Assembly (NCBI GenBank): GCA_028715985.1
Contig: JAQUQR010000004.1
Span: 73,223 to 137,222 of the forward strand
Length of the DNA stretch: 64,000 nucleotides
Origin: Methanocellales archaeon
Lineage (GTDB): Archaea > Halobacteriota > UBA148
Direction of reading: 5' to 3'
The notes under the pieces were generated by a model that worked only from the letters and a program-made list of their open reading frames with translations, did not search any database and was not told the origin of the DNA. A program made the position numbers and the translations under genes. Each line of letters starts with the position of its first letter. Position 1 is the first letter of the stretch. Shown one piece after another: positions 1,744-39,268 of this stretch.

Positions 1744-4700
1744 ATGAAGGGGGAAAAAATGAATAGTAGTAAACCTTTTAAAAATAGCGTTGACAGAAAA
1801 AAGATAACCTCGATAATATTAACAGCGATAATGTTGCTTTCGATATTTTCAGGCATCAGCGCTTCTGTAGCTGGGAATAACAACAACCGTGTTGGCAATA
1901 ACGTTGCTAGTCCGATGGAAGATGAAGGCGTGGGTGCAATGGCAGTCGGTAGCCTTGCAGCTAGCTTACATACATCATCTCCTTCTGCAAATATCGCCAA
2001 CTCGAGTGCTAACTTTACTAATGTCTTTTGGATTCGTTTTACCGCATCAGGTGAAAGTTCGAATATAACAAACATTACAATCACAGAGGCAGGAACGATT
2101 CACGGTACGAGTGAAATAATTGGAGTAGGCGTTAACGATACCGGTGGAACTGTGCTTGCTAAAAGCACTTTTTCTGCTGATAATGGAACGGCTACGCTTA
2201 CCATACCGGGTGGCTTCGAAGTGCCGGTTGGCACGCTGAAAGACCTCTACTTGTGGGTCAACACGACCGGATTTCCGCTTGGGCGTACGATAAAGCTGAC
2301 ATTAACGTCGTTCAATGCAACGGGTCTTGCTTCCGGACAAGCTGTTACAACGTCAGGAGTACCGCTTTCATCGAATGAAATAGCAGGTACTGGAAGGTTA
2401 ACGGCGGCAAACGGTCCAAGTGATGTTGCATCCCGCACCGTTAATGCAGGGGCAAACACAACTGGAATCGTGCTGGCGCAACTCAACTTCAGTGCAGAAA
2501 TCGAAGGATGCACGCTGAATACTGTTATGCTTACGGAAAATGGAACTGCAAACGGTACACAAGATTTCTCTGCTATTTATCTGGTGAATGATACCGATTC
2601 GGATGGCGTTTGGGATTCAAATGAGCCAATAGTAGGGACTACTGTGACTACGTTTTCCAAAGATAATGGCAGCGCAACCATAAGTGGAATTAGTAAAGCG
2701 ATACCGCTCAATGGCTGGTTAAATCTGCTGGTTGTGGTAAACACCACGAACCAGTTCTGGTCCGGTAACACTCTCAAGGTTAACATAACCAATGCGACGG
2801 ACTTCACCGCAACTGGTGCTACTTCGGGAGCAGCAACGGGCACATATGGAACCCCCTCATCGAATACAGCGACAGGGCAGGCAATGATTCAGGTGGCGGC
2901 AGGCGCCAAGCAGCCGTATCTCTCTTATGTGCTGGAAGGTCAAAGAGCATTGGTCGAGAGTGCACAGTTGAACTTCACTGCCATTGCAGGTCAGGTGAAC
3001 ATCACGCAAATTACGCTTGAGCAGTCGACGGTAACCAATTGGACCTATGCGGCCGCTGATACATTCCCCAAAGTCTACATAGATGTGGACGAGGATGGCA
3101 ATGTCACTGCTTTGGATACGCCATTAAACCTAACTGCGCTTAACTTTAAGACTAATAATGTGACTTTGGCGAGCTACGACACTACAATATCGGGCAATTT
3201 CTCAGATTATGCTAAACTAGCGAATGGTACGTTCCCGTATATACACATAGTAACTTTGACTAATGACACAATGGTTACAGCTTCATACCCAGAGTGGTGG
3301 TATAACATCAGCATTACCTACGTCAATAGTACTCATGCTACTGGTCAAACCAATACGACTTGGTCCAATATTACAAACGTCACAGTGGTCGATGCTGCAA
3401 ATGATACCTGGTGGCCTCTTGATATAGGCGCTAGTGAAATAGTGAGAGACATTACAGACATATCGTTCGTTACAGCTCACAATGTATCAGCTGTTGACAT
3501 CGACATCGTCGCAGGTTCACAAGTGATAGACGTTGTCTTGGATAGCAATCTAACAATTGGAAGCGTCAGTGAGACCACTGCAGGACAGGCATCGAAAATC
3601 ATCATAATAGCGGTGAATACAACTTCTGCATGGACTTCGGGCAACTATACGAAAGCATTACCCAATACGATTACAAAATACGGCAACTTCAGTAATTACG
3701 TTGCCTATGATGACACAACCGGGCAGATGACGAGGATATACCAGAACAATGACCCACTAAATACATCCATGAAGCAACTTAGTGCAGCAGTCGTTGGTGC
3801 AGTGTCCAATCCAGAGTTTAAGGTTCAGCTGGGAGCGAACACACCTACTTCCAATGTTGGCAAGAGCACCAATCTGGCTCCTGTGATGCAGTTGAGCTTC
3901 TCATATGGCGGCGTTGTAGGGGCTGATTTGGACTCAAAAGTATACCTGAGGGAATTAATCATTTCAACCAACGGCACGATCAACGAATCAAACAACGTCA
4001 CAGCATGTCTCGTTGTTGACACCAATGGCGATGGGGCAGTGAGTGCCGGTGAAACGATAGTAGCCAGTGTACTTTACTCAACCAATAATCAAACAATCAA
4101 GTTCACGCTCGCCACTCCGATCGAGATAATGCTCAACAATAAAGGCAATATGACATCAGAAGCTCTCATAGCCTACAAGCATTTGCTGATAGCATTCAAC
4201 ACATCTTCGAACATAGTTCTCGGTGAGACGATCAGACTCTACATGGACAACTCGTCCGTAGATTACATCGCCGATACAGGAACCAGCATGGTTGTAAACC
4301 AGACAAGTGCACAACTAATTGGGAACGCGCTAACAGCAGCAGGCTCAATAACAGCAACAAACACAAATGCGGTCACTGCTGGAACGGTTTCATCCGTGGT
4401 TGACGAGACCTACGTAGAACTAATACAGTTGAAGTTTACGGCAAGCAGCACTGAGGCTGTGAACATCACGAGCATAAATGTAACGTGGAACGGCACTGGC
4501 AATGGTTACGAGAAGACAAGCGGAATAGGGGTAATCAACGATACAGATATGGACGGTGTATGGGACATAACAGATACGGAACCGATGTTGAATAAAACGA
4601 CAATTGGAACTAATAACTTAGCATTCCTTAACGTGTCCTATGACAACCACAACATCACCGTTCCAGCAGGCGGGTCTGCCTATGTCTTGATATACGTGAA

Positions 4701-7359
4701 CACGACTGCTACTAGCATAAACACAAGTGATAAGATCGCATTGAACATAACGGCAGCGCCATACCTCAATTATAGCGCTGAGGGGAACGCCTCTAAGGTG
4801 ATCATCGCAGACCTCCAGACGACAACAATCTCTTCGGCAACGATGACTGCGGCTTGGACAGGAAGCATTAGCGCTGCAGGATACAACCTGACCGACAAGA
4901 CATGGGTCGAGGGTGCTCAGACGAACTTCCCAGTGTTGGCATTGAACTTCACAGCAACCAATGAAACGGCAAATATCACTTCGATGGTCCTAAGTGCATC
5001 TGGAACCGCCAATGAATCTGGCAATGTAACGCTAAAGCTGGTAGAGGATGTTGCACCGTTTGGCTCTTACGAGAGCGAGACGATATTAGCTACTGCAACT
5101 TTCACGGCTGACAATGGGGCGGTAACATTAACGCCGTCATCCCAGATTCAGGTGGTCGGTGGAAGCTACACGAAGGTACTTGTGGTCGCAGACATCACCG
5201 CAAAGGTTGAGGCAGGTACAAGCCTGGTGACTTCTTTGCTGGACCCATCTGTGCATTACAATGCGGTAGGTTACTACTCCGGAGCGAGAATCCAGGATGC
5301 AAGCACAACGGCGGTTTCAAACACGACATGGTCAACAGGAAACATTACGGTCCTCGTTGGAGCGAACAATACCATCACTGGACCGGTGGACGCACTGAAT
5401 AACACCTATGTTGAAGTAATGCAGTTGAACTTCTCGGCAACGTTCGGGATGGAAAACGTGAACATCACGGGAATCAACCTGACCGCAATGGGTACGGATC
5501 CATACAACGACACATGGGGAGTTGGACTCATCAACGATACAAATGCCAATGGTCTGATTGATGCCGGTGAAGCAGTAATTGGAAATGGCACATTCGATGT
5601 AAACGGCACGGCAGTAATCAATTTCGACTTTGTAGAGTATTGGAATCTGACGGTCAATGGCTCGGCTGTGCAAGAATGGGCAAATCAAACGTTCAACAAC
5701 ACGATCGTTTACGTGAATACGAGCAGCAACTTCAATGCCAGCGACTGGCTGCAGTTGAGACTGGAGAGCTACAACGCGACGGGCGTTACTTCCGGTCAAT
5801 CGTTAACCGCTTTCGGTACGACGATAACGTCCAACAAGCTCACCGGAACAGGGAACGTGACCGCTATGGATGGAGCCAGTGATGTGCTTAATGAAACAGT
5901 TATAAAGTCTGGTGTGAACACCAGCGTAGTGGTCTGGCAACTAAAACTCACGGCAGGAGCGGCTGAGAACATCACCATAACCAGCATAGACATATCAGAA
6001 AACGGAACCGCCAATGCGGCAACAGATATTGCAAGCATCTACCTGGTGAACGATACAAATGCGAATGGACTATGGAACACGACAGCAGGTGACAGCGGTA
6101 TCATTTCGAACGCAGGAACATTCACCGCCGATGATGGTACAGTAACGCTGACGCTGACTGCAAACAACACGGTACTTGCAGGGAATTCTGTTAATTACCT
6201 GCTGGTTGTGAACACAGCATCCACGTTCTACGAGGGAGAAACACTGTCGTTCTTCATTAACAGGTCAGCTCCAAACGGAGAGCCAACAAGAGTACAGGGA
6301 ATGATTGCAACCGGTGCAACTTCGGAAACAACCGTTTACAACAACTTCACATTCAGTCCAGCTTCGAACAAAACAATTGGGTCTGCCTGCATTGACGTCT
6401 ACGACACGACACAGACAACAGTAGCAATATATAACCAAACTGCCACCAACAAAGAGGTTCTCAGGGTGAACTTCAGTGCACCACAGGGAGCAGTGAACAT
6501 AACGAACATAACGCTGAGGGAGAACGGATCTGCACTGGTAGCACCTGGCGGAGGCATTCAGAATGTCAGTGTTTGGTACAATGGCGTGTGTTACAATAGC
6601 ACCTTGGCCAGTTTGTGGTCAGAGAACGGAACACTCCGCATAGAGACGGTGGGCATGGTCGTTAATGGCACGACCAACGAGGTTACGATAAAAGTGAACA
6701 CGACATCCGCTCTTGCAACTGGCCAGACAATAAACTTCGAACTCAACAGGACGTTAGGCAACGGATACAACGCATCGGGCAATGTTTCATTGAATATTAC
6801 CTCCAGTCAGACAGGCAACATAAGCAACCTGATTACGGTGCAGGGTGCACCATCAGGCGAGATATCCTTGAAGGCAGGTTGGAACTTCATTTCCGTGCCG
6901 AAGAAGCAGGATACCACCAAGGATACCTTTGGAGAGTTACTCGCTGGATGGACGACATGGACTGCATATTCATACAATGCAGCTACGAGTAGTTGGACAT
7001 CGTTGACTGCGAGCAGTTCAATCAATGACGATGTGTTAGCCGGTTACTGGGTCTACGTTGATACTGCGGGAACAGTCTATCTGTCTTACAAAGACGCAAG
7101 TTATTTACCACCACCAAGCAAAGCGCTTACAGGCAATGCATGGAATGCGATAGGCTTCTCGAACACTACTGCTCAGACTGCTGAGAATACATTGAAATCA
7201 GTGGATGGTTCGTGGAGCACAGTGATTGGATGGGATGCAACAAGCCAGAGCTATCAGGATGCAATCATCGAGGGTGACTTGACATCAACCATGAATCCCT
7301 TCCAGGGTTACTGGGTATGGATGACACAGGACGACACACTATCCGCAATAAGTGCCTAG
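1744..7359 (+). CDS. Giant (1871 aa) secreted, heavily N-glycosylation-sequon-rich cell-surface protein (S-layer/adhesin-like) with at least 6 internal ~150-aa repeats carrying DxDxDG Ca-binding-like loops and a divergent 2-copy C-terminal module
   Basis: It is a long uninterrupted ORF. The N-terminal hydrophobic segment (ITSIILTAIMLLSIFSGISASVAG) is a signal-peptide candidate. N-x-S/T sequons are very frequent. A repeated motif QLxF...NITxIxLxENGT...IYLVNDTDxDGxWD recurs. An alternative start is ATG 1759 (MNSS), which is preceded by GGGGG. Confidence 0.8.
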   Translation: MKGEKMNSSKPFKNSVDRKKITSIILTAIMLLSIFSGISASVAGNNNNRVGNNVASPMEDEGVGAMAVGSLAASLHTSSPSANIANSSANFTNVFWIRFTASGESSNITNITITEAGTIHGTSEIIGVGVNDTGGTVLAKSTFSADNGTATLTIPGGFEVPVGTLKDLYLWVNTTGFPLGRTIKLTLTSFNATGLASGQAVTTSGVPLSSNEIAGTGRLTAANGPSDVASRTVNAGANTTGIVLAQLNFSAEIEGCTLNTVMLTENGTANGTQDFSAIYLVNDTDSDGVWDSNEPIVGTTVTTFSKDNGSATISGISKAIPLNGWLNLLVVVNTTNQFWSGNTLKVNITNATDFTATGATSGAATGTYGTPSSNTATGQAMIQVAAGAKQPYLSYVLEGQRALVESAQLNFTAIAGQVNITQITLEQSTVTNWTYAAADTFPKVYIDVDEDGNVTALDTPLNLTALNFKTNNVTLASYDTTISGNFSDYAKLANGTFPYIHIVTLTNDTMVTASYPEWWYNISITYVNSTHATGQTNTTWSNITNVTVVDAANDTWWPLDIGASEIVRDITDISFVTAHNVSAVDIDIVAGSQVIDVVLDSNLTIGSVSETTAGQASKIIIIAVNTTSAWTSGNYTKALPNTITKYGNFSNYVAYDDTTGQMTRIYQNNDPLNTSMKQLSAAVVGAVSNPEFKVQLGANTPTSNVGKSTNLAPVMQLSFSYGGVVGADLDSKVYLRELIISTNGTINESNNVTACLVVDTNGDGAVSAGETIVASVLYSTNNQTIKFTLATPIEIMLNNKGNMTSEALIAYKHLLIAFNTSSNIVLGETIRLYMDNSSVDYIADTGTSMVVNQTSAQLIGNALTAAGSITATNTNAVTAGTVSSVVDETYVELIQLKFTASSTEAVNITSINVTWNGTGNGYEKTSGIGVINDTDMDGVWDITDTEPMLNKTTIGTNNLAFLNVSYDNHNITVPAGGSAYVLIYVNTTATSINTSDKIALNITAAPYLNYSAEGNASKVIIADLQTTTISSATMTAAWTGSISAAGYNLTDKTWVEGAQTNFPVLALNFTATNETANITSMVLSASGTANESGNVTLKLVEDVAPFGSYESETILATATFTADNGAVTLTPSSQIQVVGGSYTKVLVVADITAKVEAGTSLVTSLLDPSVHYNAVGYYSGARIQDASTTAVSNTTWSTGNITVLVGANNTITGPVDALNNTYVEVMQLNFSATFGMENVNITGINLTAMGTDPYNDTWGVGLINDTNANGLIDAGEAVIGNGTFDVNGTAVINFDFVEYWNLTVNGSAVQEWANQTFNNTIVYVNTSSNFNASDWLQLRLESYNATGVTSGQSLTAFGTTITSNKLTGTGNVTAMDGASDVLNETVIKSGVNTSVVVWQLKLTAGAAENITITSIDISENGTANAATDIASIYLVNDTNANGLWNTTAGDSGIISNAGTFTADDGTVTLTLTANNTVLAGNSVNYLLVVNTASTFYEGETLSFFINRSAPNGEPTRVQGMIATGATSETTVYNNFTFSPASNKTIGSACIDVYDTTQTTVAIYNQTATNKEVLRVNFSAPQGAVNITNITLRENGSALVAPGGGIQNVSVWYNGVCYNSTLASLWSENGTLRIETVGMVVNGTTNEVTIKVNTTSALATGQTINFELNRTLGNGYNASGNVSLNITSSQTGNISNLITVQGAPSGEISLKAGWNFISVPKKQDTTKDTFGELLAGWTTWTAYSYNAATSSWTSLTASSSINDDVLAGYWVYVDTAGTVYLSYKDASYLPPPSKALTGNAWNAIGFSNTTAQTAENTLKSVDGSWSTVIGWDATSQSYQDAIIEGDLTSTMNPFQGYWVWMTQDDTLSAISA

Positions 7360-7554: not shown

Positions 7555-8367
7555 ATGGATGTGAGGATGAAGGGCTATAATAAAAAACAGCTGTTGTATG
7601 CTATCTTGATCGTCTCTTTTTTGATGCTATTTTCGACTGTCGTGGTAGAAGCACAAGCACCAGTATTACCCTGTAGTTTTTATGGCAACGTTACCATCGA
7701 TGGGAAGCCTGCGCCCATAGGGACCGAGATCACAGCGAAAATGGATAATAAAACCTGTGGAAATATGACTGTAAGAGAAGAAGGTAAATATGGGGAATCA
7801 GCTGGGGAAAAATTAAGTGTGACCGGAAATATAGCGGACGAAAACAAGATAATTTCGTTCTACGTGGACGGAGATGAGGCGGAGGAAAAAGCTACATGGC
7901 AAATTGGAGGAGTTAACCGTCTGGATCTTAGCGTTAAGAAATCGAACATACAGACCCCTTCAAGTCCACCCTCTAGTGGTAGCGGGGGGATAAGTCCAAC
8001 CACGCCTGCACCAACGCCATCGTCCACTCTGGTTCCTGCGCCAACTCCAACCCCTACACCAACTTCTACTCCAACACCAACGCCTACCCCAACACCAGCA
8101 CCAACACCAGCACCAACTTCAACACCCCTACCAACACCAGCTCCTACACCAACATCAACTCCCACTCAAATGCCAACAACTACACCGACTCCCGCTCCTG
8201 TTTCTACTCCAAGACTATCGCTCATATCTGAGAGACCATCCTCTGAGAAGCCATCGAATGCCTTTGACTTAAATTCAGAGAAAATTATGCTAGTCTTTGG
8301 TATAATTTTGGTTGTATCAGCTTTGGTTGCATTAATGTTATATCGACGCAAAGGCGAGAAACTTTAG
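7555..8367 (+). CDS. Secreted surface protein with an N-terminal FYGxVTxxGxPAP beta-sandwich-like domain (family A), a Pro/Thr-rich linker and a C-terminal TM anchor with a basic tail (no PGF motif)
   Basis: Signal peptide [23 protein letters not shown]. The domain is shared with the 8464 gene. The linker is PTPTPTPT(S)[12 protein letters not shown]. The C-terminus is [27 protein letters not shown]. The start may be at M5 (7567). Confidence 0.7.
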
Positions 8368-8463
8368 AGATACGAACTGCATTTGTCTATTAAACCAAAA
8401 AGCTTTATTATATAGTAAGAAGTTTAATAAATAGTAAAGTCCAATACCTGAAGGGGCGTAAAG

Positions 8464-10842
8464 ATGAGGCAAATAAGGGGAGATTTAATAAGAAAGTCGA
8501 CTTCGATCGGCGTCATTGGAATGCTTATACTTTCGATGTTAACTATGATGGCAGTGCCATCAGTATCGGGAGTTGACGTCTTTCTACCTGCTAGTTTTTA
8601 TGGAGACGTAACTGTGAATGGGGAACCCGCACCCGTTAATACAGTGGTTACAGGAAGAATAGTTGATGCCGTAGGATCACCTGGTCAGGGTAACATAACG
8701 GTAACCGAAGCAGGCAAATATGGCGTGGCTGCTGGTGAGAAATTAGGTGTTTCAACTGATAACGAAAATGATAACGAAAAAACGATAGAATTCTACATAA
8801 AACTTCCTTCCGGGTCGGAAGGCAAAGCGGATCAAACCGCGACTTTTTCCATTGGTGGTATTACCAAATTGAATTTAACCGCTACGGTGGTAATAGGGAC
8901 GCCACCAACCATAACATCCTATTCACCTACCGATACCACACCGAATGATTACGAGGCTGCGACAAGAACGTTCTCGGTCACCGTTGATCAGCCGACAACA
9001 GTGGCATGGAGTATAAATGGAACCGTGGTCGAAACAGATGCAGGCGTACCTGCTTCTACAGCCGCCAGTTATACGAATGGGAGTGCTGTCGAAGGTTATT
9101 GGTCAGTTTCTGCGGTTGCAACGAACGTTACCTCAGGGTTGTCTGATACACAGACTTGGGAGTGGATGGTGGAGGACATAACGCCACCGGCAAAGGTAAC
9201 TGGATTGACAAGTGACACACCCACTCTTACCACCGTTAACCTTACGTGGGATGCAAGTACAGCCTCAGACTTTTTAAAATATAGCGTGTACAAGAATGGG
9301 GCACTATTGGACAATACCACAAATACATATTATAATGTAACTGGTTTGGAGGCCAGCACAACTTACTACTTTAACGTTTCCGCATGGGATGATAGCGACA
9401 ATGAAGGAGAATTGAGCGCTGGTGTTACCATAACGACGGCTTCCTACCCTGCACCAATTATTGTGGGTTATAACAACGTAACAGGCAGTTCACTCAGTAT
9501 AACGGTTAACGAAATGGAAGCAATACGGTTCAATGCAACTGCCGATCAAGCTATTACCACTTGGAATTGGTTCAGGGATGGGGTAAATCAGATTTGGAAT
9601 TACGATAGCTTTGAAACGTGCTGGAGCGTTAACGGAACCTACAGCGTTGCCGTGAATGCTACCAATGCAAATGGCACATCGAACACGGTTACATGGACGA
9701 TCGTGGTGAATGACATAACTTCGCCAGCGATGGTGACGGGATTAACGAATGGCACGCCAAGTTCCACTGGGGTTGATTTGTGGTGGACAGCAAACACAGA
9801 AGCGGACCTCGTCGGATACAGGGTATATCAGGACGGTTTGTTACTTGTAACCACTGCTAACGCCTACTACAGCGTAACCGGATTATCGCCAGCCACGACA
9901 TATACATTCAACGTTTCGGCATATGATGACAATGCTTTGGAAGGCGAGAACGCAACCATAAGTGTGACCACATCGCTCTATTCGGCACCAACGATCACTT
10001 CCTACACCATATCTAATCGCACCATTGCACCGCCGCAGACCACTGATATAGATGTGGCATTTTCGGAAGTGGTGGAAGCCTGGATACAAATCGAGGATTC
10101 AAACCACAACCTTGTGAAGGAATTGTATCACAGCTCCAGCGTAACCAATCCGACCGCTAAGACTTGGGATGGGACCTACACGAATGCAACCGTTGTTCCA
10201 GATGGCACCTATTACGTAAACGTTACGGGAATAAACGCAACAACTGGCTTGAGCGTGGTTGACAATACGCAGAGTATCGTGGTGGCATCTGAGGTAACCA
10301 TTCAGTACAACCTCGTCAAGAATCCCGGAAGCACGGGCAAGAACTGGATCAGCATACCGCTCACCACAAACATCACAACCGCATCCCAACTGATGTCTGT
10401 AATAGGGTCCAACTGCGATGCAGTCAACCGATGGAATCCTGTTACCCAGAAACCAGAAGGCTGGATCTCACTGATGGGCGGCATGGGCACTAACTTTGCA
10501 ATAGTGCCTGGCGAAGGCTACGAGGTATCGGTTACTGCGAATACGACCTTCAGCGTGACAGGTGCACCTGCAACCATCAGCCAGATTGACCTCGTCAAGA
10601 AACCCGGAAGCACGGGCAAGAACTGGATCGGTTTGCCCTACGACACCACGCTTACGTCTGCATCTACGGTGATGAGTTCAATAGGATCCAACTGCGATGC
10701 AGTCAACCGATGGAACCCTGTTACTCAGAAACCAGAAGGCTGGATCTCACTGATGGGCGGCATGGGCACTAACTTTGCCATCGTAACGGGCAGGGGATAC
10801 GAGGTATCGGTCACAGGCAATGTGACCTGGACACCTGTTTGA
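8464..10842 (+). CDS. Secreted modular surface protein (792 aa): family-A N-terminal domain, PKD-like domains, two fibronectin-III-like domains, an Ig-like domain and two tandem copies of the conserved KNWIS...GYEVSV C-terminal module
   Basis: Signal peptide IGVIGMLILSMLTMMAVPSVSG. FN3-like motifs (VNLTWDAS...YKNG...TxYxFNVSAWDD) occur twice. The C-terminal module copies lie at about 10300-10563 and 10585-10839. Confidence 0.8.
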   Translation: MRQIRGDLIRKSTSIGVIGMLILSMLTMMAVPSVSGVDVFLPASFYGDVTVNGEPAPVNTVVTGRIVDAVGSPGQGNITVTEAGKYGVAAGEKLGVSTDNENDNEKTIEFYIKLPSGSEGKADQTATFSIGGITKLNLTATVVIGTPPTITSYSPTDTTPNDYEAATRTFSVTVDQPTTVAWSINGTVVETDAGVPASTAASYTNGSAVEGYWSVSAVATNVTSGLSDTQTWEWMVEDITPPAKVTGLTSDTPTLTTVNLTWDASTASDFLKYSVYKNGALLDNTTNTYYNVTGLEASTTYYFNVSAWDDSDNEGELSAGVTITTASYPAPIIVGYNNVTGSSLSITVNEMEAIRFNATADQAITTWNWFRDGVNQIWNYDSFETCWSVNGTYSVAVNATNANGTSNTVTWTIVVNDITSPAMVTGLTNGTPSSTGVDLWWTANTEADLVGYRVYQDGLLLVTTANAYYSVTGLSPATTYTFNVSAYDDNALEGENATISVTTSLYSAPTITSYTISNRTIAPPQTTDIDVAFSEVVEAWIQIEDSNHNLVKELYHSSSVTNPTAKTWDGTYTNATVVPDGTYYVNVTGINATTGLSVVDNTQSIVVASEVTIQYNLVKNPGSTGKNWISIPLTTNITTASQLMSVIGSNCDAVNRWNPVTQKPEGWISLMGGMGTNFAIVPGEGYEVSVTANTTFSVTGAPATISQIDLVKKPGSTGKNWIGLPYDTTLTSASTVMSSIGSNCDAVNRWNPVTQKPEGWISLMGGMGTNFAIVTGRGYEVSVTGNVTWTPV

Positions 10843-10845
10843 ATT

Positions 10846-10890
10846 GAATGCACTGATGGTGCATTCATTCCTCCCTTTTTATTTTCATTT
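10846..10890 (+). terminator. Hairpin GAATGCAC-TGATG-GTGCATTC followed by a T-rich tract; candidate terminator
   Basis: An 8-bp inverted repeat lies immediately after the stop at 10842. It is followed by attcctccctttttattttcattt. Confidence 0.45.
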
Positions 10891-10957
10891 ACGGGCTGGC
10901 ACATCGGATAAAATAAAGTAGGGAAGGCATAATCACAAAATGGTGAGGTGAGAGGAA

Positions 10958-13393
10958 ATGCTGAAAAATAAGTTCATTTTTATTTCGGTTTTGATGGTGG
11001 CTTTTCTGGCACTGGCAAGCGGGGCCCAGGCAGCCCACTGGATTGCTGGTACTGTCAACGATGCAGCAGACGGCAAGCCTGCTGATGGGCATACGGTCAT
11101 CATATACTATCTGGGCGACGAAGCCCGTAATAATTCTGGCATCATAGGTCCAACGGTTGAGAATCCTGATATTTTAAATAACAAGTACCAGATTGATGCC
11201 CAAGCGATTCCAGGCCATACATGGAAAGAAGGCGATGTAATCTATGCGAAAGTAATTGACAACGGAGACGGCTATACTGCTGGACCGGTTTCCGTGACTA
11301 CAACAGGTGCAGGATACGATGTTGAGCCTGACATGACCCTTCAAGCCTCTGTAATGGCGAATGCAGGTCCTGACCAGATGGTTGATGAAGATGTTATAGT
11401 ATATTTCAACGGCTCAGCCTCCACTATGGCAGTCAATTACTCCTGGGACTTCGATGCCAGCGATGGAATCCAGGAGGATGCTACAGGAGTTAACGTGAGC
11501 CATGTCTATGCCGATCCCGGTGTATATACAGTAACCCTCACCATAAACGCCGGAGCGAGCAATGACACCCTAATAGTCACCGTAAACGACATCACGTCCC
11601 CAACAGCCAATGCAGGTTCGGATCAGACCGTTTTAAACGGTACAACAGTGACATTTAACGGCACCTTATCCACCGATAACGTCGCCATAGTAAACTACTC
11701 TTGGGACTTCGATGCCAGTAACGGCATCCAGGAGGATGCTACAGGTGCTGTTGTGACCTATCTTTATCCCGCTTTTGGCACCTACACGGCAACCCTTACC
11801 GTATCTGACGCAGCAGGCAACAATGACACGGACACGGTCAATATAACTGTCACGGAGGTCAGAGCAGATGCAGGTCCTGACCAGACGGTTGATGAAGACA
11901 CGGTGGTCTATTTCAACGGTTCCAACTCTTCAGGTGCGTTAAACCACTCCTGGGATTTCGATGTAAGCGACGGCATCCAATCAGATGCCACAGGAGTTAA
12001 CGTGAGCCATATCTACGCTCAACCAGGCGTTTACACCGTAACCCTCACCATAAACGCCGGAGCGAGCAATGACACCCTTGTCGTCACAGTGAATGACATC
12101 ACGCCCCCAACAGCCAACGCAGGTCCAGATCAGAACGTTCTAAACGGCACTCTTGTGCAATTCAATGGAACGTTATCCACCGACAATGTCGCTATAGTAA
12201 ACTACTCCTGGGACTTCGATGCCAGCGATGGCATTCAAGAGGACGCTACAGGTGCTGTTGTGACCCATCTTTATCCCGCTTTTGGCACCTACACGGCAAC
12301 CCTTACCGTATCTGACGCAGCAGGCAACAATGACACTGACATAGTCAACATCACCGTCGCGGCAATAATAGCAGATGCAGGTCCTGACCAGACGGTTAAC
12401 GAGGACATCGTAGTCTATTTCAACGGCTCAGGCTCTTCAGGTGCGTTAAACTACTCTTGGGATTTCGATGCAAGCGACGGCATCCAATCAGATGCCACAG
12501 GAGTTAACGTGAGCCATATCTACGCTCAACCAGGCGTTTACACCGTAACCCTCACCATAAACGCCGGAGCGAGCAATGACACTCTAACGGTCACAGTAAA
12601 GGATGTAACGCCACCGACAGCCAATGCGGGTCCCAACCAAATTGTATTAAACGGCACTTTTGCTGAATTCAATGGATCATCATCCACCGATAACGTCGCT
12701 ATAGTAAACTACTCCTGGGACTTCGATGCCAGCAACGGCATTCAGGAGGATGCTACAGGCGCTATAGTAACCCATCTTTACCCAACCTTTGGCACCTACA
12801 CGGCAACCCTCACCGTATCTGACGCAGCAGGCAACAATGACACTGACACCGTTAACGTCAGCGTAGTGCCTTCAGTTGCACCCATTGGATTGACAGTGGT
12901 GTTAAATGCGGATAATACGGTCACATTAACCTGGGTTGAATCCCTTTTGGGCAATTTTGACATCTATGCATCAAACACATCTGGAGTCAGCCTAGTTACT
13001 CCCATAGCTACAGGTTATGGATATTCTTGGACAGATAACGATGCGGATGCTTATTCCCATAGGTATTATAAGGTCAGAGCCAAGGGAATTATTGGGTCCG
13101 AAACCATTGCAAAATATGACGTTAACCTCGTCAAAAAGCCCGGCGGCACAGGTAAGAATTGGATATCGATGCCTGAAAATCCTGCCATTACAAATGCATC
13201 CTCCTTAATGAAGGCAATAGGGCCCACATGTGACTCCATAAACCGATGGAACCCTGTTACCCAGAAACCAGAAGGCTGGATCTCACTGATGGGCGGCATG
13301 GGCACGAATTTTGCTGTTACACCCTATGAAGGCTACGAGGTATCTGTCAACGCCAACACAACGTTTACTGTTGTGGGAATCATGGGCTATTAG
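10958..13393 (+). CDS. Secreted PKD-repeat surface protein (811 aa): family-B N-terminal domain (AHWIxGTVNDAAD...), three tandem units of 169 aa that are 2 PKD domains each, then one copy of the conserved C-terminal module
   Basis: Signal peptide FISVLMVAFLALASGAQA|AHW. PKD signatures (NYSWDFDASDGI...HxYxxPGVYTVTLTI) recur. The C-terminal module lies at about 13112-13375. Confidence 0.85.
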   Translation: MLKNKFIFISVLMVAFLALASGAQAAHWIAGTVNDAADGKPADGHTVIIYYLGDEARNNSGIIGPTVENPDILNNKYQIDAQAIPGHTWKEGDVIYAKVIDNGDGYTAGPVSVTTTGAGYDVEPDMTLQASVMANAGPDQMVDEDVIVYFNGSASTMAVNYSWDFDASDGIQEDATGVNVSHVYADPGVYTVTLTINAGASNDTLIVTVNDITSPTANAGSDQTVLNGTTVTFNGTLSTDNVAIVNYSWDFDASNGIQEDATGAVVTYLYPAFGTYTATLTVSDAAGNNDTDTVNITVTEVRADAGPDQTVDEDTVVYFNGSNSSGALNHSWDFDVSDGIQSDATGVNVSHIYAQPGVYTVTLTINAGASNDTLVVTVNDITPPTANAGPDQNVLNGTLVQFNGTLSTDNVAIVNYSWDFDASDGIQEDATGAVVTHLYPAFGTYTATLTVSDAAGNNDTDIVNITVAAIIADAGPDQTVNEDIVVYFNGSGSSGALNYSWDFDASDGIQSDATGVNVSHIYAQPGVYTVTLTINAGASNDTLTVTVKDVTPPTANAGPNQIVLNGTFAEFNGSSSTDNVAIVNYSWDFDASNGIQEDATGAIVTHLYPTFGTYTATLTVSDAAGNNDTDTVNVSVVPSVAPIGLTVVLNADNTVTLTWVESLLGNFDIYASNTSGVSLVTPIATGYGYSWTDNDADAYSHRYYKVRAKGIIGSETIAKYDVNLVKKPGGTGKNWISMPENPAITNASSLMKAIGPTCDSINRWNPVTQKPEGWISLMGGMGTNFAVTPYEGYEVSVNANTTFTVVGIMGY
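11357..12877 (+). repeat. Tandem DNA repeat of 3 x about 507 bp inside the PKD gene (each unit encodes two PKD domains), about 90 percent identical
   Basis: The unit boundary GCAGATGCAGGTCCTGACCAG recurs at about 11357, 11864 and 12371. Long identical runs are visible between copies. Confidence 0.8.
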
Positions 13394-13458
13394 GTGGATA
13401 AAAGTATATATATGTAATACGCACATAAAAATAGGGAAAGGGAGGTATCAAAAAAAAG

Positions 13459-14709
13459 ATGAGAGCGAATAAACTTATTTTTATTTCGGTCTTAACAGTG
13501 GCTTTCCTGGCACTGATGAGCGGAGCGCAAGCAGCCCACTGGATTTCTGGAACGGTCAACGATGCCGCAGACAGCACGCCAGCAAACGGACACAAGGTCA
13601 TCATCTACTATCTGGGAGACCAAGCCCATAACGTATCCGACACCATAGGTCCCGCTGGTATGTCTGGTACGAGTAACATGTATATGTGTGATGCTGAGTC
13701 CATTCCAGGTCACGTATGGGCTCCCGGCGATGTAATCTACGCCAAGGTAATTGACACCGGCGACGGCTACACTGCTGGGCCAGTTTCTGTGACTACCACA
13801 GGTGCAGGCTTCGATACTGAGCCTACCATGACACTCGAAATTTGGGTACCGCCACCCATCGTGGCAGAGCCCCAGGCAAGCCCATCGCAAATAAGCATCA
13901 ATACAGGCGTTACGGAACTGAGCGTCAAAGTGTACAAAACCTCTTATGACATTGATACGGTTACAGTAAACCTCTCTCAAATTGGTGGTCTGAGTAATCA
14001 CATGATGAGCCTCAAGGAAGTCATTAACGCTACGGCCTCCATTTATAATTGTACAACCAACTCAAGTGTGGAAGGTACTTTTAGTCTTCCGGTAAATGCC
14101 ACAGACATCTACGGCAATTCCAACACATCCGTTAGCATTTCTCTGGAGGTCACAAGTGCCATTCAAATCCAGTACAACCTCGTCAAAAAGCCTGGAAGCA
14201 CAGGCAAGAACTGGATCAGCATACCTCTTGAAACGAACATTACAACAGCATCCCAATTAATGTCTGCAATAGGATCCAACTGCGATGCAGTCAACCGATG
14301 GAACCCTGTTACCCAGAAATCAGAAGGCTGGATTTCACTATTTGGAGGCATGGGCACTAACTTTGCAATAGTGCCTGGCGAAGGCTACGAAGTATCGGTC
14401 ACAGCAAACACGACTTTCTCAGTCTTAGGAACCATACCCACCACACAAAGCATCAATCTCGTCAAAAAACCTGGCAGCACTGGCAAGAATTGGGTCGGAC
14501 TTCCCTACTTCACAACCAAATCCAATGCCTCTCAACTGATGAGTTCAATAGGATCCAACTGCGATGCAGTCAACCGATGGAACCCTGTTACCCAGAAATC
14601 AGAAGGTTGGATTTCACTATTTGGAGGCATGGGTACGAACTTCAACATCACAACAGGCGCAGGCTACGAAGTATCGGTTACAGGAAATACGACATGGATG
14701 CCTACTTGA
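13459..14709 (+). CDS. Secreted surface protein (416 aa): family-B N-terminal domain, a central Ig-like region and two tandem copies of the conserved C-terminal module
   Basis: Signal peptide FISVLTVAFLALMSGAQA|AHW is nearly identical to those of the 10958 and 14779 genes. Module copies lie at about 14161-14425 and 14452-14706. A TATA-like aagtatatatatg and a GGGAGG RBS lie upstream. Confidence 0.85.
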   Translation: MRANKLIFISVLTVAFLALMSGAQAAHWISGTVNDAADSTPANGHKVIIYYLGDQAHNVSDTIGPAGMSGTSNMYMCDAESIPGHVWAPGDVIYAKVIDTGDGYTAGPVSVTTTGAGFDTEPTMTLEIWVPPPIVAEPQASPSQISINTGVTELSVKVYKTSYDIDTVTVNLSQIGGLSNHMMSLKEVINATASIYNCTTNSSVEGTFSLPVNATDIYGNSNTSVSISLEVTSAIQIQYNLVKKPGSTGKNWISIPLETNITTASQLMSAIGSNCDAVNRWNPVTQKSEGWISLFGGMGTNFAIVPGEGYEVSVTANTTFSVLGTIPTTQSINLVKKPGSTGKNWVGLPYFTTKSNASQLMSSIGSNCDAVNRWNPVTQKSEGWISLFGGMGTNFNITTGAGYEVSVTGNTTWMPT

Positions 14710-14778
14710 GTCAAAAAGAAAAAATTAATAATTGAATTAGAAAAAAATACTGAATAGGAAGTGAGAAGGGAGAAAAAG

Positions 14779-16143
14779 ATGAAACAGAAAATATGTCTTG
14801 TATTTGTCTTAACAGTGGCTTTCTTGGCACTGATGAGCGGGGCTCAAGCAGCCCACTGGATTTCTGGAACGGTCAACGATGCCGCAGACAGCACGCCAGC
14901 AAACGGACACACGGTCATCATCTACTATCTGGGAGATGAAGCCAATTATGTATCCGACACCATAGGTCCAACCGGCGCATCTGGTACAAATAACATGTAT
15001 ATGTGCGATTCGGAGTCCATTCCAAACCATGTATGGGCTCCCGGCGATGTGATCTACGCGAAAGTAACAGACAATGGAGATGGCTACACCGCTGGACCGG
15101 TTTCCGTGACTACAACAGGTGCAGGCTTTGATGTTATGCCTGCCATGACACTTCAGGCAGCACCAGACACAACAGCACCTGTGATAACAAGCCCAACAGC
15201 AACCCCATCTTCAATACCTGCGGATGGAGCTACGACATCTGTGTTGAACGCAACGGTAACGGATAATGTCGGCATCGCAAGCGTTACAGTGGACCTCTCT
15301 ACAATAGGGGGCTCTGCTACGACAGCGATGACGAAGGTTGGCACTACAGACGTTTACAGCGTAACCACGACTGCATCGACATCGACAGCCTTAGGAACCA
15401 AAAGCTTAACAGTCACTGCGACTGACACTAATACCACTCCGAATACGGCAACCAGTAGCATTTCATTGACTGTTACAGCCGTACCAGACACATTTGCACC
15501 CATAGTTACCAACCCAACTGCGACGCCATCCACCATATACGCAAACGGGATTGCAACATCTCAGTTGAGCGTAACGGTAACGGATGGTACTGGCATCGCA
15601 AGCGTTACAGTGAACCTCTCTGCAATAGGGGGCTCTGCTACGACAGCGATGACGAAGGTTGGCACTACAGACGTTTACAGCGTAACCACGACCGCAGCGC
15701 CAACGACAGCACCTGGGACCTACAACTTGGCTGTTACTGCGACAGACAGCAGTACGAACGCTAACACCAACACATCGGTTAGCATTTCATTGACGGTTCA
15801 GGCGTTGCCTGTGACCATCACGTCAGTCTCGATCGACGATTCAACCGCCAGCAAGGGACAGAACTTCACTGCGCGCATAAACATGAGTTCAACTGTTACT
15901 GGGTGGTATGTCGTTGTTGTCAGTGGAATTGAATCCGGCGGAGAAGGTATAGCTGGTATAGGAACGGTCTATTTAACTGCAAGTCAGTCTGTAACGAATA
16001 TGCCTGTACTCGTGCATATCCCGTCTCAGGCAACAGTGGGTAGTTATACCCTCTATGCAGGAGCATATGCGATAGGTGACTATCCAGCAAACCTAGCAAG
16101 CATAATAGACCATGCAGGGCCTGTGACTGCGACGGTCACATGA
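14779..16143 (+). CDS. Secreted surface protein (about 455 aa): family-B N-terminal domain, 2 x 106-aa tandem Ig-like repeats and a distinct C-terminal beta-domain; it lacks the KNWIS module
   Basis: The ORF track starts at 14761. ATG 14779 (MKQKICLVFVL) is preceded by GAAGGGAG. The N-terminal coding sequence is about 95 percent identical in DNA to the 13459 gene. Confidence 0.8.
   Translation: MKQKICLVFVLTVAFLALMSGAQAAHWISGTVNDAADSTPANGHTVIIYYLGDEANYVSDTIGPTGASGTNNMYMCDSESIPNHVWAPGDVIYAKVTDNGDGYTAGPVSVTTTGAGFDVMPAMTLQAAPDTTAPVITSPTATPSSIPADGATTSVLNATVTDNVGIASVTVDLSTIGGSATTAMTKVGTTDVYSVTTTASTSTALGTKSLTVTATDTNTTPNTATSSISLTVTAVPDTFAPIVTNPTATPSTIYANGIATSQLSVTVTDGTGIASVTVNLSAIGGSATTAMTKVGTTDVYSVTTTAAPTTAPGTYNLAVTATDSSTNANTNTSVSISLTVQALPVTITSVSIDDSTASKGQNFTARINMSSTVTGWYVVVVSGIESGGEGIAGIGTVYLTASQSVTNMPVLVHIPSQATVGSYTLYAGAYAIGDYPANLASIIDHAGPVTATVT
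15160..15797 (+). repeat. Tandem 2 x about 318-bp repeat with an 80-bp core of near-100 percent identity, inside the 14779 gene
   Basis: The stretch ctctct(a/g)caatagggggctctgctacgacagcgatgacgaaggttggcactacagacgtttacagcgtaaccacga occurs twice. Confidence 0.8.
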
Positions 16144-16153
16144 CTCTTTTGAT

Positions 16154-16936
16154 TTGTGGGGAGATGAACTAACCATGAAAAAAAGAGTTGAATGGGGAAT
16201 TGTTTTAGCAATTCTCGTATTGGCATCTTCATTAATCGCACCCGCATCTGCTGTAGATCAGCTTGCTATTTCAGTCTCTCCTGATCCAGCGGTTCAAGAC
16301 CTAGCCTTAACGGTAACCGTTACAGCGTCAGGCAGTCCTGTCTCAGGCGTATTCGTACAGTTTATCCTGAATGGTGGAACGCCAATATATGCATCGACGG
16401 ATGCAAGCGGTCAAGCGATATTTAAACCGCTTCTGACAGGCACATTGGAGATAATTGCGACAAAATCAGGGTATCTAACCGCAACTAAATCTGTATCGGT
16501 TGGGGTGGCGCCTACGCCTACACCCACGCCCACACCTACACCCACGCCTACGCCCGTAACTCCTGGAACAGGTGGCGGCGGGTACGTACCGTCACCTACA
16601 CCGACGGCAACACCAACAGCAACACCAGCGCCAACAGCAACACCAACAGCAACACCAACAGCAACACCAACAGCAGCACCAGCACCCACACCAGCACCCA
16701 CACCAGCACCCACACCTGCACCCACACCTGCGCCAACACCGAAACCAACACCAGCACCTACACCAGCACCCACACCAGCGCCTACACCAAAACCAACACC
16801 AGCACCTACAGTCAGACCAACGCTAGCCCCAGCTCCAACACCCACGCCAACGCCTGGTATACCGGGATTTGAGGCAGCCTTCGCAATCGTTGGACTCCTA
16901 GCGGTTGCATATTTGATTAGACGAAGAGAATATTAA
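16154..16936 (+). CDS. Secreted PGF-CTERM protein (archaeosortase A substrate) with a PEGA/carboxypeptidase-regulatory-like beta-domain and a long Pro/Thr/Ala linker
   Basis: Signal peptide [18 protein letters not shown]. The C-terminus [27 protein letters not shown] is the canonical PGF-CTERM pattern (PGF, then TM, then Arg-rich end). The gene starts 11 bp after the previous stop. Confidence 0.85.
16508..16858 (+). repeat. Low-complexity microsatellite-like DNA (ACACCAGCACC-type units) encoding the PT/PA linker; it generates artefactual ORFs in other frames
   Basis: Tandem acaccagcacccacaccagc units. The antisense ORF (16411..16845) is poly-GV and the +2 frame ORF is poly-QH. Confidence 0.8.
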
Positions 16937-39101: not shown

Positions 39102-39268
39102 GGGCTCGTAGCTCAGCTAGGAAGAGCGCCTGGCTTTTAACCAAACTTTTAGTAGAGATGAACTCTAATCAAAACATGCTGTCTTATTCGCTGGCATTTT
39201 ATGGTAGACGGATCTTGAAAATTCTGGAAGAAACCAGGTGGTCGGGGGTTCAAGTCCCTCCGAGCCCG
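39102..39268 (+). tRNA. tRNA-Lys(UUU) with a 93-nt intron in the anticodon arm (exons about 39102-39140 and 39234-39268)
   Basis: The acceptor GGGCUCG pairs with CGAGCCC and the discriminator is G. The D-arm is GCUC-AGCUAGGAA-GAGC. The anticodon stem CCUGG pairs with CCAGG and flanks the loop CUUUUAA. The T-arm is GGGGG-UUCAAGU-CCCUC. Confidence 0.7.

Follow-up and report, generated by a model that had tools for sequence, protein, structure and literature searches.

Secreted proteins of archaea are held at the cell surface by two known routes, transmembrane helices and archaeosortase/PGF-CTERM lipid anchors, and the surface retention of unanchored secreted proteins is poorly understood in archaea lacking a wall polymer. 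The archaeal surface repeats described by Adindla et al. 2004 (PMC2447325) are of other lengths (repeats of 42–54 aa, domains of 70 and 200 aa) than the module considered here. The stretch analyzed, hereafter the window, comprises 64 kb (64,000 nt) of contig JAQUQR010000004.1 of a Methanocellales archaeon; its genes are named below by the window position of their first nucleotide. Modules of ~88 amino acids (aa) were found at the C-termini of the products of genes 8464 (two modules), 10958 (one) and 13459 (two). The module is a distinct, uncurated extracellular domain family that lies outside every domain library searched, and the tandem pair in which it usually occurs is predicted to be a single compact, two-lobed unit. 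A preliminary description, made from the letters of the sequence, had reported an unrecognized C-terminal module in seven near-identical copies; the copies located in the present analysis, with c1 and c2 denoting the first and second module of a pair, are as follows.

10297..10560, + strand: module c1 of gene 8464 (tblastn, hidden Markov model (HMM), alignments).
10576..10839, + strand: module c2 of gene 8464, ending ...NVTWTPV directly before the stop codon (tblastn, HMM, alignments).
13112..13375, + strand: single module of gene 10958, with the c1-like end TTFTVV and then the tail GIMGY to nt 13390 (tblastn, HMM).
14164..14427, + strand: module c1 of gene 13459, 91% identical to c1 of gene 8464 (tblastn, HMM, alignment).
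14443..14706, + strand: module c2 of gene 13459, ending ...NTTWMPT directly before the stop codon (tblastn, HMM, alignment).
6856..7356, + strand: remote tandem pair of gene 1744 (modules 6856–7095 and 7117–7356; GWNFISVP...GYWVYV and NAWNAIGF...GYWVWM).

When the window was searched by tblastn with copy c1 of gene 8464, five matches were obtained (E-values from 1e-38 to 1e-58), located at 10294–10563 (100% identity), 14161–14430 (91%), 10582–10833 (77%), 13124–13378 (75%) and 14455–14697 (77%), and no sixth copy was found in the 64 kb below E = 2. The five modules lay where the preliminary description had placed them. As ~88-aa modules they are 66–91% identical, the protein identities calculated among the copies are 71–91% and the mean DNA column identity is 80%; the modules of genes 8464 and 13459 each gave E-values of 1e-39 to 1e-41 with the family HMM. 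The 45-mer that had been quoted as an identical stretch between paralogs was recovered four times at no more than one mismatch, at a chance expectation of 0. The two remaining copies of the reported seven, those of gene 1744, proved to be remote, with only ~22–26% identity to the other five; they were not linked to them by BLAST and were not detected by an HMM built from 254 modules. They were joined to the family by profile comparison and predicted secondary structure: a profile of this pair with a few relatives aligned to the family pair profile with an hhalign probability of 95.7% (E = 9.6e-9) over 162 columns, in register through both modules, and the AlphaFold2 model of the pair (predicted local distance difference test (pLDDT) = 86.5, predicted template modelling score (pTM) = 0.82) has in each module the same order of elements as the family. 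Thus, five close copies and one remote pair stand in place of seven near-identical copies.

A signal peptide is present in every module carrier of the window (translations of the open reading frames (ORFs)). The carrier genes are listed below.

8464..10842, + strand: secreted protein of 792 aa with signal peptide, N-terminal domain, two fn3 domains, a FlgD_ig-like domain and the C-terminal module pair (ORF list, Pfam, module HMM).
10958..13393, + strand: secreted protein of 811 aa with N-terminal domain, six PKD domains and one C-terminal module (ORF list, Pfam, module HMM).
13459..14709, + strand: secreted protein of 416 aa with N-terminal domain, Ig-like (Big-like) region and the C-terminal module pair (ORF list, Pfam, module HMM).
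1744..7359, + strand: giant secreted protein of 1871 aa ending in the remote version of the pair (ORF list).

The module HMM matched aa 616–703 and 709–796 of the stop-to-stop ORF of gene 8464, and PKD_4 matched six stretches of the gene 10958 product (E = 2.7e-95, Pfam). The middle domains preceding the module are, as had been stated, unrelated to one another (fn3, FlgD_ig, six PKD and Big-like; Pfam, NCBIfam). The Pfam scan found no domain in the gene 1744 product, an orthologue of which, of at least 1814 aa, is present in the syntenic locus L001; N-x-T/S sequons are very abundant in this protein, and repeated units of ~140 aa are apparent. The single module with its GIMGY tail is kept in the gene 10958 orthologues P0018, P0004 and P0005. 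It should be noted that the gene 10958 orthologue in L001 (8931–10282, single-cell genome of Halobacteriota archaeon AM-311-A10) is broken into two overlapping ORFs, one of 362 aa and one of 93 aa that contains only the module; this is probably a frameshift or an assembly collapse of PKD repeats and not a genuine stand-alone module.

Searches of Pfam, NCBIfam, PHROGs and PDB sequence profiles bore out the statement that the module matches no recognized family. Neither Pfam-A (24,736 models) nor NCBIfam had a match over the module in the window proteins, and in 30 further family members Pfam, NCBIfam and PHROGs gave none over the module even at E up to 0.1, the only returns being chance-level fragments (for example, DUF6966, E = 0.003, 12 residues). 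Profile searches of PDB sequences yielded no module match even at E = 10. As for individual families, there was no Dockerin_1 match (PF00404) on the module and no two-EF-hand all-helical pattern in the predicted structure; the sole Dockerin_1 match in Pfam was sub-threshold (E = 0.074) and fell outside the module, at aa 446–483 of the gene 1744 product. SLH (PF00395) and LysM (PF01476) were absent from the Pfam results of all carriers scanned, and the type A C-terminal domain (CTD) of type IX secretion systems (T9SS; PF18962/TIGR04183) did not match the module. No PGF-CTERM/archaeosortase signal was found on the carriers, which end in ...TWTPV, ...TWMPT and ...GIMGY without a hydrophobic helix. 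Full-text literature searches returned no description of the module.

The pair of gene 8464 (183 aa) was modelled by AlphaFold2 from an 87-sequence alignment with a mean pLDDT of 96.7 and a pTM of 0.91, and the structural plausibility of the module is thereby supported. In the model, each module is alpha+beta, with the order strand-strand-helix-strand-strand-(short turn)-strand-strand; the small beta-sandwich that had been expected is not what was predicted. Since a pTM of 0.91 for two modules implies a fixed mutual arrangement, the pair is predicted to be one body. A Foldseek search of 350,542 chains gave nothing better than E = 0.08 and a TM score of 0.14. The only match in the viral structure library BFVD was A0A8D9C8P8 (587 aa, E = 6.5e-4, TMq = 0.52), whose label "hemin binding" is uninformative; it is probably another family member, being similar in length to the T9SS-type proteins P0058 and P0066 (594–595 aa). 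The modelled fold appears to have no detectable counterpart among solved structures, and its newness is claimed against these alone.

The most conserved columns of the module are L7, N17, I19, P22, A30, L33, I37, G38, V44, R46, W47, N/D48, Q52, N/D67, F68, G73, G75, Y76, V78 and V80, to which the second copy adds the terminal W86 (94%) and P88 (75%). Polar positions strongly conserved in both halves are N17, R/K46, N/D48, Q52 and N/D67. A disulfide between the halves was considered and rejected, the module Cys being only ~50% conserved and missing from one half in some members. An N-x-T/S sequon (NTT/NVT) was observed before the last conserved aromatic residue, in HMM columns 83–85 (for example, at 10537–10545 and 14401–14409), with N in 35–41% of the family at column 83 and T or S in 48–65% at column 85, which hints at N-glycosylation of the module in archaea.

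The family was delimited by an exhaustive HMM search of 1.84 billion cluster representatives (clusters at 50% identity), which gave 986 proteins or clusters with an E-value of 1e-3 or better (268 with 1e-10 or better and 17 with 1e-30 or better); the occurrence of the module beyond this locus is thus established. Only five close relatives came up in a word-indexed search, each of them a fragment in a metagenome assembly of Methanocellales or Halobacteriota. When a diverse alignment of pairs was used for a second search, 108 proteins were retrieved, and in none of them did a Pfam domain fall on the module. Architecture was counted in the best 155 hits of the exhaustive search, with protein lengths from ~200 to 4,871 aa. 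Exactly two modules, 4–14 residues apart, were found in 134 of these 155 proteins; by this count and the AlphaFold2 model, the usual unit is a pair predicted to fold as one body, in place of the single tandem-capable module originally proposed. The earlier claim that the module is always C-terminal stood in part: it sits mostly at the C-terminal end, behind unrelated cargo domains, ending within 10 residues of the protein C-terminus in 120 of 155 (77%), and is internal in 31 of 155.

The products of genes 8464 and 13459 carry a signal peptide and a pair of the family, the pattern of which is N-W-I-S-x-P ... R-W-N-x-x-T-Q ... N-F ... G-E-G-Y-x-V. Throughout the family, a signal-peptide-like N-terminus was found by a crude test in 189 of 215 complete-looking members. 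The cargo domains include VWA, LTD, MG2, cohesin, Laminin_G_3, CBM_11, Big_5, fn3, FlgD_ig and PKD, as well as Peptidase_C1, lectin-like, CHB_HEX_C, NosD and dockerin domains. A stand-alone form, in which proteins of 195–230 aa consist only of a signal peptide and the pair, is common, and complete single-module proteins also occur (the gene 10958 product, P0018, P0021, P0022 and P0053).

Archaeal hosts of the family are Methanocellaceae UBA148, Methanocellales STD1_76, the single-cell genome "Halobacteriota archaeon AM-311-A10", uncultured Methanocellaceae and Methanosarcinales, Candidatus (Ca.) Methanophagaceae (= ANME-1), Ca. Altiarchaeales and Ca. Pacearchaeota; the genome scan with alignment A3 reaches close Methanocellales relatives only. 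Synteny with the window is seen at loci L001 and L007. Several different carriers in one genome share near-identical modules; the window has three such carriers, and AM-311-A10 has no fewer than five, spread over three loci. In 19 of 155 proteins, the pair lies upstream of a T9SS CTD (Por_Secre_tail/TIGR04183) with a domain of ~148 aa between them. Because of these downstream CTDs and of bacterial gene neighborhoods (for example, with QueA and extracytoplasmic function (ECF) sigma factors), many members are considered to be bacterial, and the module is not the archaeal domain that it had been taken for. The intervening ~148-aa domain (P0058, P0066, P0078, P0085, P0090 and others) has the pattern PHLVYG...F.AY...P.E.L...S.GC...G.W.VQC..F...W; it has no Pfam or NCBIfam match and is unrelated to the bacterial partner protein described below or to anything in the window.

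Comparison of the codon-aligned copies of the window revealed a mosaic. In the flanks of the module (first 90 nt and last 54 nt), each copy resembles the copy at the same position in the other gene (c1–c1, 83% and 78%; c2–c2, 72% and 72%), whereas in the central 102 nt (nt 91–192) the greatest similarity is between the two copies of one gene (94% and 89%); synonymous differences are fewer there, and identical runs of 53–61 nt occur. Position-grouped flanks around a core homogenized within the gene are the pattern made by partial gene conversion between tandem copies, and the remark on gene conversion in the preliminary description is borne out to this extent. The same tendency was seen in 127 proteins across the family, where the halves of one protein were 60% identical (median) versus 30% between proteins, and the nearest foreign relative of c1 was a c1 in 113 of 127 proteins and that of c2 a c2 in 115 of 127. 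The grouping of c1 with c1 and of c2 with c2 despite 60% identity within proteins indicates that the duplication is old and that the halves, while positionally distinct, have been continually homogenized.

The stand-alone form occurs in bacterial cassettes at the following loci.

L002, 8001–9736: cassette locus, with the pair gene at 8001–8588 and the partner gene at 8600–9736.
L005, 8001–9793: cassette locus.
L015, 6001–8009: cassette locus.
L017, 178–3430: cassette locus.
L022, 5001–6987: cassette locus.
L023, 995–4361: cassette locus.

In all loci with downstream sequence (6 of 6), the stand-alone pair gene is followed within ~10–65 nt by a homologous partner gene encoding 378–443 aa, whose product is Pfam-less and secreted or lipoprotein-like (homology with E-values from 1e-5 to 1e-51). 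An ECF sigma factor gene and a single-pass anti-sigma-like gene precede the pair gene in three loci; the anti-sigma-like protein has ~160–200 aa and a conserved C-terminal ...FY(R/L/V)(I/V)D end. A further stand-alone pair protein, P0161, is encoded on an IMG/VR contig (L018/L019/L021, UViG 3300001580_000497; gene L018 6001–6636) and is 57% identical to the window pair. Its gene closes a tight low-GC operon, the other products of which include a pI/Zot-like morphogenesis ATPase, a subtilisin that bears a transmembrane segment at its C-terminus, and several small membrane proteins; the contig may represent an integrated element or a virus of archaea.

In the window, the carriers belong to an island of consecutive secreted-protein genes on the + strand (1744–7359, 7555–8367, 8464–10842, 10958–13393, 13459–14709, 14761–16143 and 16154–16936; ORF list). 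Two of its genes encode proteins with membrane anchors.

7555..8367, + strand: protein of 270 aa, paralogue of the N-terminal domain of gene 8464, ending in a Pro/Thr-rich linker and a transmembrane helix (ORF translation, tblastn).
16154..16936, + strand: surface protein that combines a CarboxypepD_reg domain with a Pro/Thr-rich linker and a PGF-CTERM anchor (Pfam PF18204, E = 2.2e-10; TIGR04126, E = 1.3e-9).

The PGF-CTERM of gene 16154, which had already been recognized in the preliminary description, was confirmed by Pfam and NCBIfam and is the only one that they detected. The N-terminal domain common to genes 7555 and 8464 (window 7666–7932 and 8584–8883) shows 46% identity over 99 aa (tblastn), has the motif LPxSFYGxVTxxGxPAP... 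and is without a Pfam match; the C-termini of the two proteins diverge, one having the linker and transmembrane helix and the other the fn3 domains and the module pair. The two genes offer a natural comparison in the choice of anchor. Another N-terminal domain, of ~105 aa, lies right behind the signal peptide in genes 10958, 13459 and 14761 (window 11030–11344, 13531–13839 and 14848–15156), with ~70% mutual identity, the motif AAHWI(A/S)GTVNDAAD...GPVSVTTTGAG and no Pfam or NCBIfam match.

The context described above makes it quite possible, if still short of probable, that the pair is an extracellular, non-catalytic, pseudo-symmetric binding or docking unit. This is inferred from the alternative C-termini among paralogues, the near-identical copies within a genome and the conserved bacterial partner gene. 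Binding or docking also fits best with the terminal position behind interchangeable cargo, with the mutual exclusivity of the pair and membrane anchors in the archaeal island (the pair-bearing window proteins have none, whereas gene 7555 ends in a transmembrane helix and gene 16154 in PGF-CTERM), and with the homogenization of copies within protein and genome, as in dockerins fitting one cohesin. The extracellular setting of the carriers, the single compact body predicted for the pair and the strongly conserved polar positions of both halves also count in its favor. Concerted evolution of halves and carriers is what would be expected if both halves must keep recognizing one common or symmetric partner. 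The native unit consists of tandem ~88-aa alpha+beta modules, predicted to be packed as a rigid body with a pseudo-two-fold axis. Placed at the end of otherwise unanchored secreted proteins, the pair would hold them non-covalently to a shared cell-surface ligand, the candidates being a component of the envelope or S-layer and a dedicated protein partner, and single-module proteins such as that of gene 10958 would probably associate with another module to make up the unit. Several points weigh against the binding or docking unit. In 19 of the 155 proteins, the pair lies inside T9SS cargo, before another domain and a true CTD, and these proteins are anchored by other means; a cargo-less stand-alone pair would be unusual if anchoring were its sole role; the conservation of aromatic and polar residues could simply reflect the needs of the fold; the pair-bearing archaeal proteins might simply be released into the medium; and searches of the window and the archaeal loci turned up no homologue of the partner gene seen in bacteria.

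A bolder form of the docking proposal, which we regard as speculative and rather unlikely as a whole, is that the undescribed fold is the docking half of a new non-covalent attachment system of archaea and bacteria, an analogue of cohesin–dockerin with a receptor of its own. The receptor would be the ECF-sigma-controlled neighbor of 380–440 aa in bacteria and an envelope or S-layer component in archaea, and the near-identical halves would allow dual or symmetric binding.

Self-association is a doubtful alternative, according to which the pair would drive the formation of oligomers, a lattice or a filament of carriers, single modules would dimerize, and no separate envelope ligand would be involved. 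The packing of the pair as a pseudo-dimer (pTM 0.91), the existence of complete single-module proteins and the concerted evolution of the halves are compatible with this, and the common cargo-less secreted pairs would suit a structural subunit better than an anchor; however, no donor-strand or pilin-like features were seen, and the conserved neighboring partner gene suggests a heterotypic interaction. Comparably doubtful is the view of the pair as an adhesin or lectin head, that is, a business end and not a tether, binding an external target, for instance a polysaccharide or mineral, a host surface or another cell. Domains of the adhesin type (PKD, VWA, Laminin_G, cohesin, lectin-like) accompany it, receptor binding would be a fitting role for the IMG/VR-contig member beside the pI/Zot-like ATPase, and conserved Asn, Gln, Asp and Arg positions are present. 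Nevertheless, the glycoside-hydrolase catalytic partners typical of carbohydrate-binding modules (CBMs) were absent from the 19 proteins scanned, no CBM or lectin profile or PDB fold matched, and in T9SS cargo the pair is at the cell-proximal end, beside the CTD.

It is improbable that the pair is an inert structural spacer, or a folding or stability domain without a specific ligand, like Ig or fn3 spacers. It does keep company with many domains that are purely structural, and Pfam and NCBIfam revealed neither a catalytic motif nor a known binding motif in it, but spacers vary freely in copy number, whereas that of the module is fixed at two; the terminal position, the reuse of the same module by different carriers in one genome, and the stand-alone form with its conserved partner and ECF-sigma context also argue against this explanation. 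Finally, a C-terminal sorting or secretion signal of an unrecognized export or attachment pathway, resembling the T9SS CTD, was rejected as very improbable: the extreme C-terminal position in 77% of hits and the conserved end of the second copy (W86 94%, P88 75%) would suit it, but it is largely excluded by the pairs upstream of bona fide T9SS CTDs in 19 hits and by the cargo-less stand-alone proteins; in addition, the pair has no transmembrane segment, and the module is found in archaea and bacteria alike, whose envelopes are unrelated.

Other features of the window were observed in passing. Long antisense ORFs at 7860–8165 (− strand) and 16411–16845 (− strand), both Gly/Val-rich, lie opposite the Pro/Thr-rich linkers of genes 7555 and 16154 and are almost certainly artefacts of low-complexity coding sequence. 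A tRNA of 167 nt at 39102–39268 (Rfam, 51.3 bits), missed by ARAGORN under bacterial settings, sits just upstream of the genes of RNA polymerase B, A' and A''; from its length, it would seem to be an archaeal tRNA that contains an intron.

The pair is a concrete candidate for a further retention or docking mechanism, spanning Methanocellales and ANME-1 to Altiarchaeales, Pacearchaeota and T9SS-bearing bacteria. Uncharacterized surface-protein domains are, however, common in metagenomic data. Independently of its function, this is a family of at least 986 clusters with a very confident model that has no PDB counterpart, and its bacterial cassette offers an experimental handle. An entry in a domain library would for the first time label many carriers now called "hypothetical protein" or left unnamed.

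Among known systems, the type I dockerin (PF00404) is likewise a small non-catalytic module, usually C-terminal on many secreted cargo proteins of one organism, with an internal duplication of very similar halves and with copies closer within than between genomes, and some family members of the pair co-occur with cohesin or dockerin domains. The pair differs in being mainly beta with one helix per half (predicted), whereas the dockerin is a Ca-binding EF-hand helix pair, in the size of the half (~88 versus ~22 aa) and in having no sequence match to it; no cohesin-like receptor was identified in the window. The T9SS type A CTD is likewise a domain of ~80 aa placed at the very C-terminus of secreted surface proteins of diverse kinds. 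The pair has no match to its profile and precedes a real CTD in 19 members, and is therefore distinct from it; the pair also occurs in archaea, from which no type IX secretion system is known. PGF-CTERM (TIGR04126) is comparable as the alternative C-terminal ending of the neighboring gene 16154 in the same island, but it is a short motif with a transmembrane helix processed to a lipid anchor, whereas the pair is globular, of 180 aa, and without a transmembrane segment. SLH and LysM modules are likewise terminal and repeated and tether a variety of secreted proteins to the envelope, a role that the pair may share; the pair differs from them in the lack of a profile match, in its predicted secondary-structure pattern and in its copy number fixed at two. 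In its behavior, the pair comes closest to a dockerin or to a tether of the SLH type, although by sequence profile and predicted structure it belongs to neither family.

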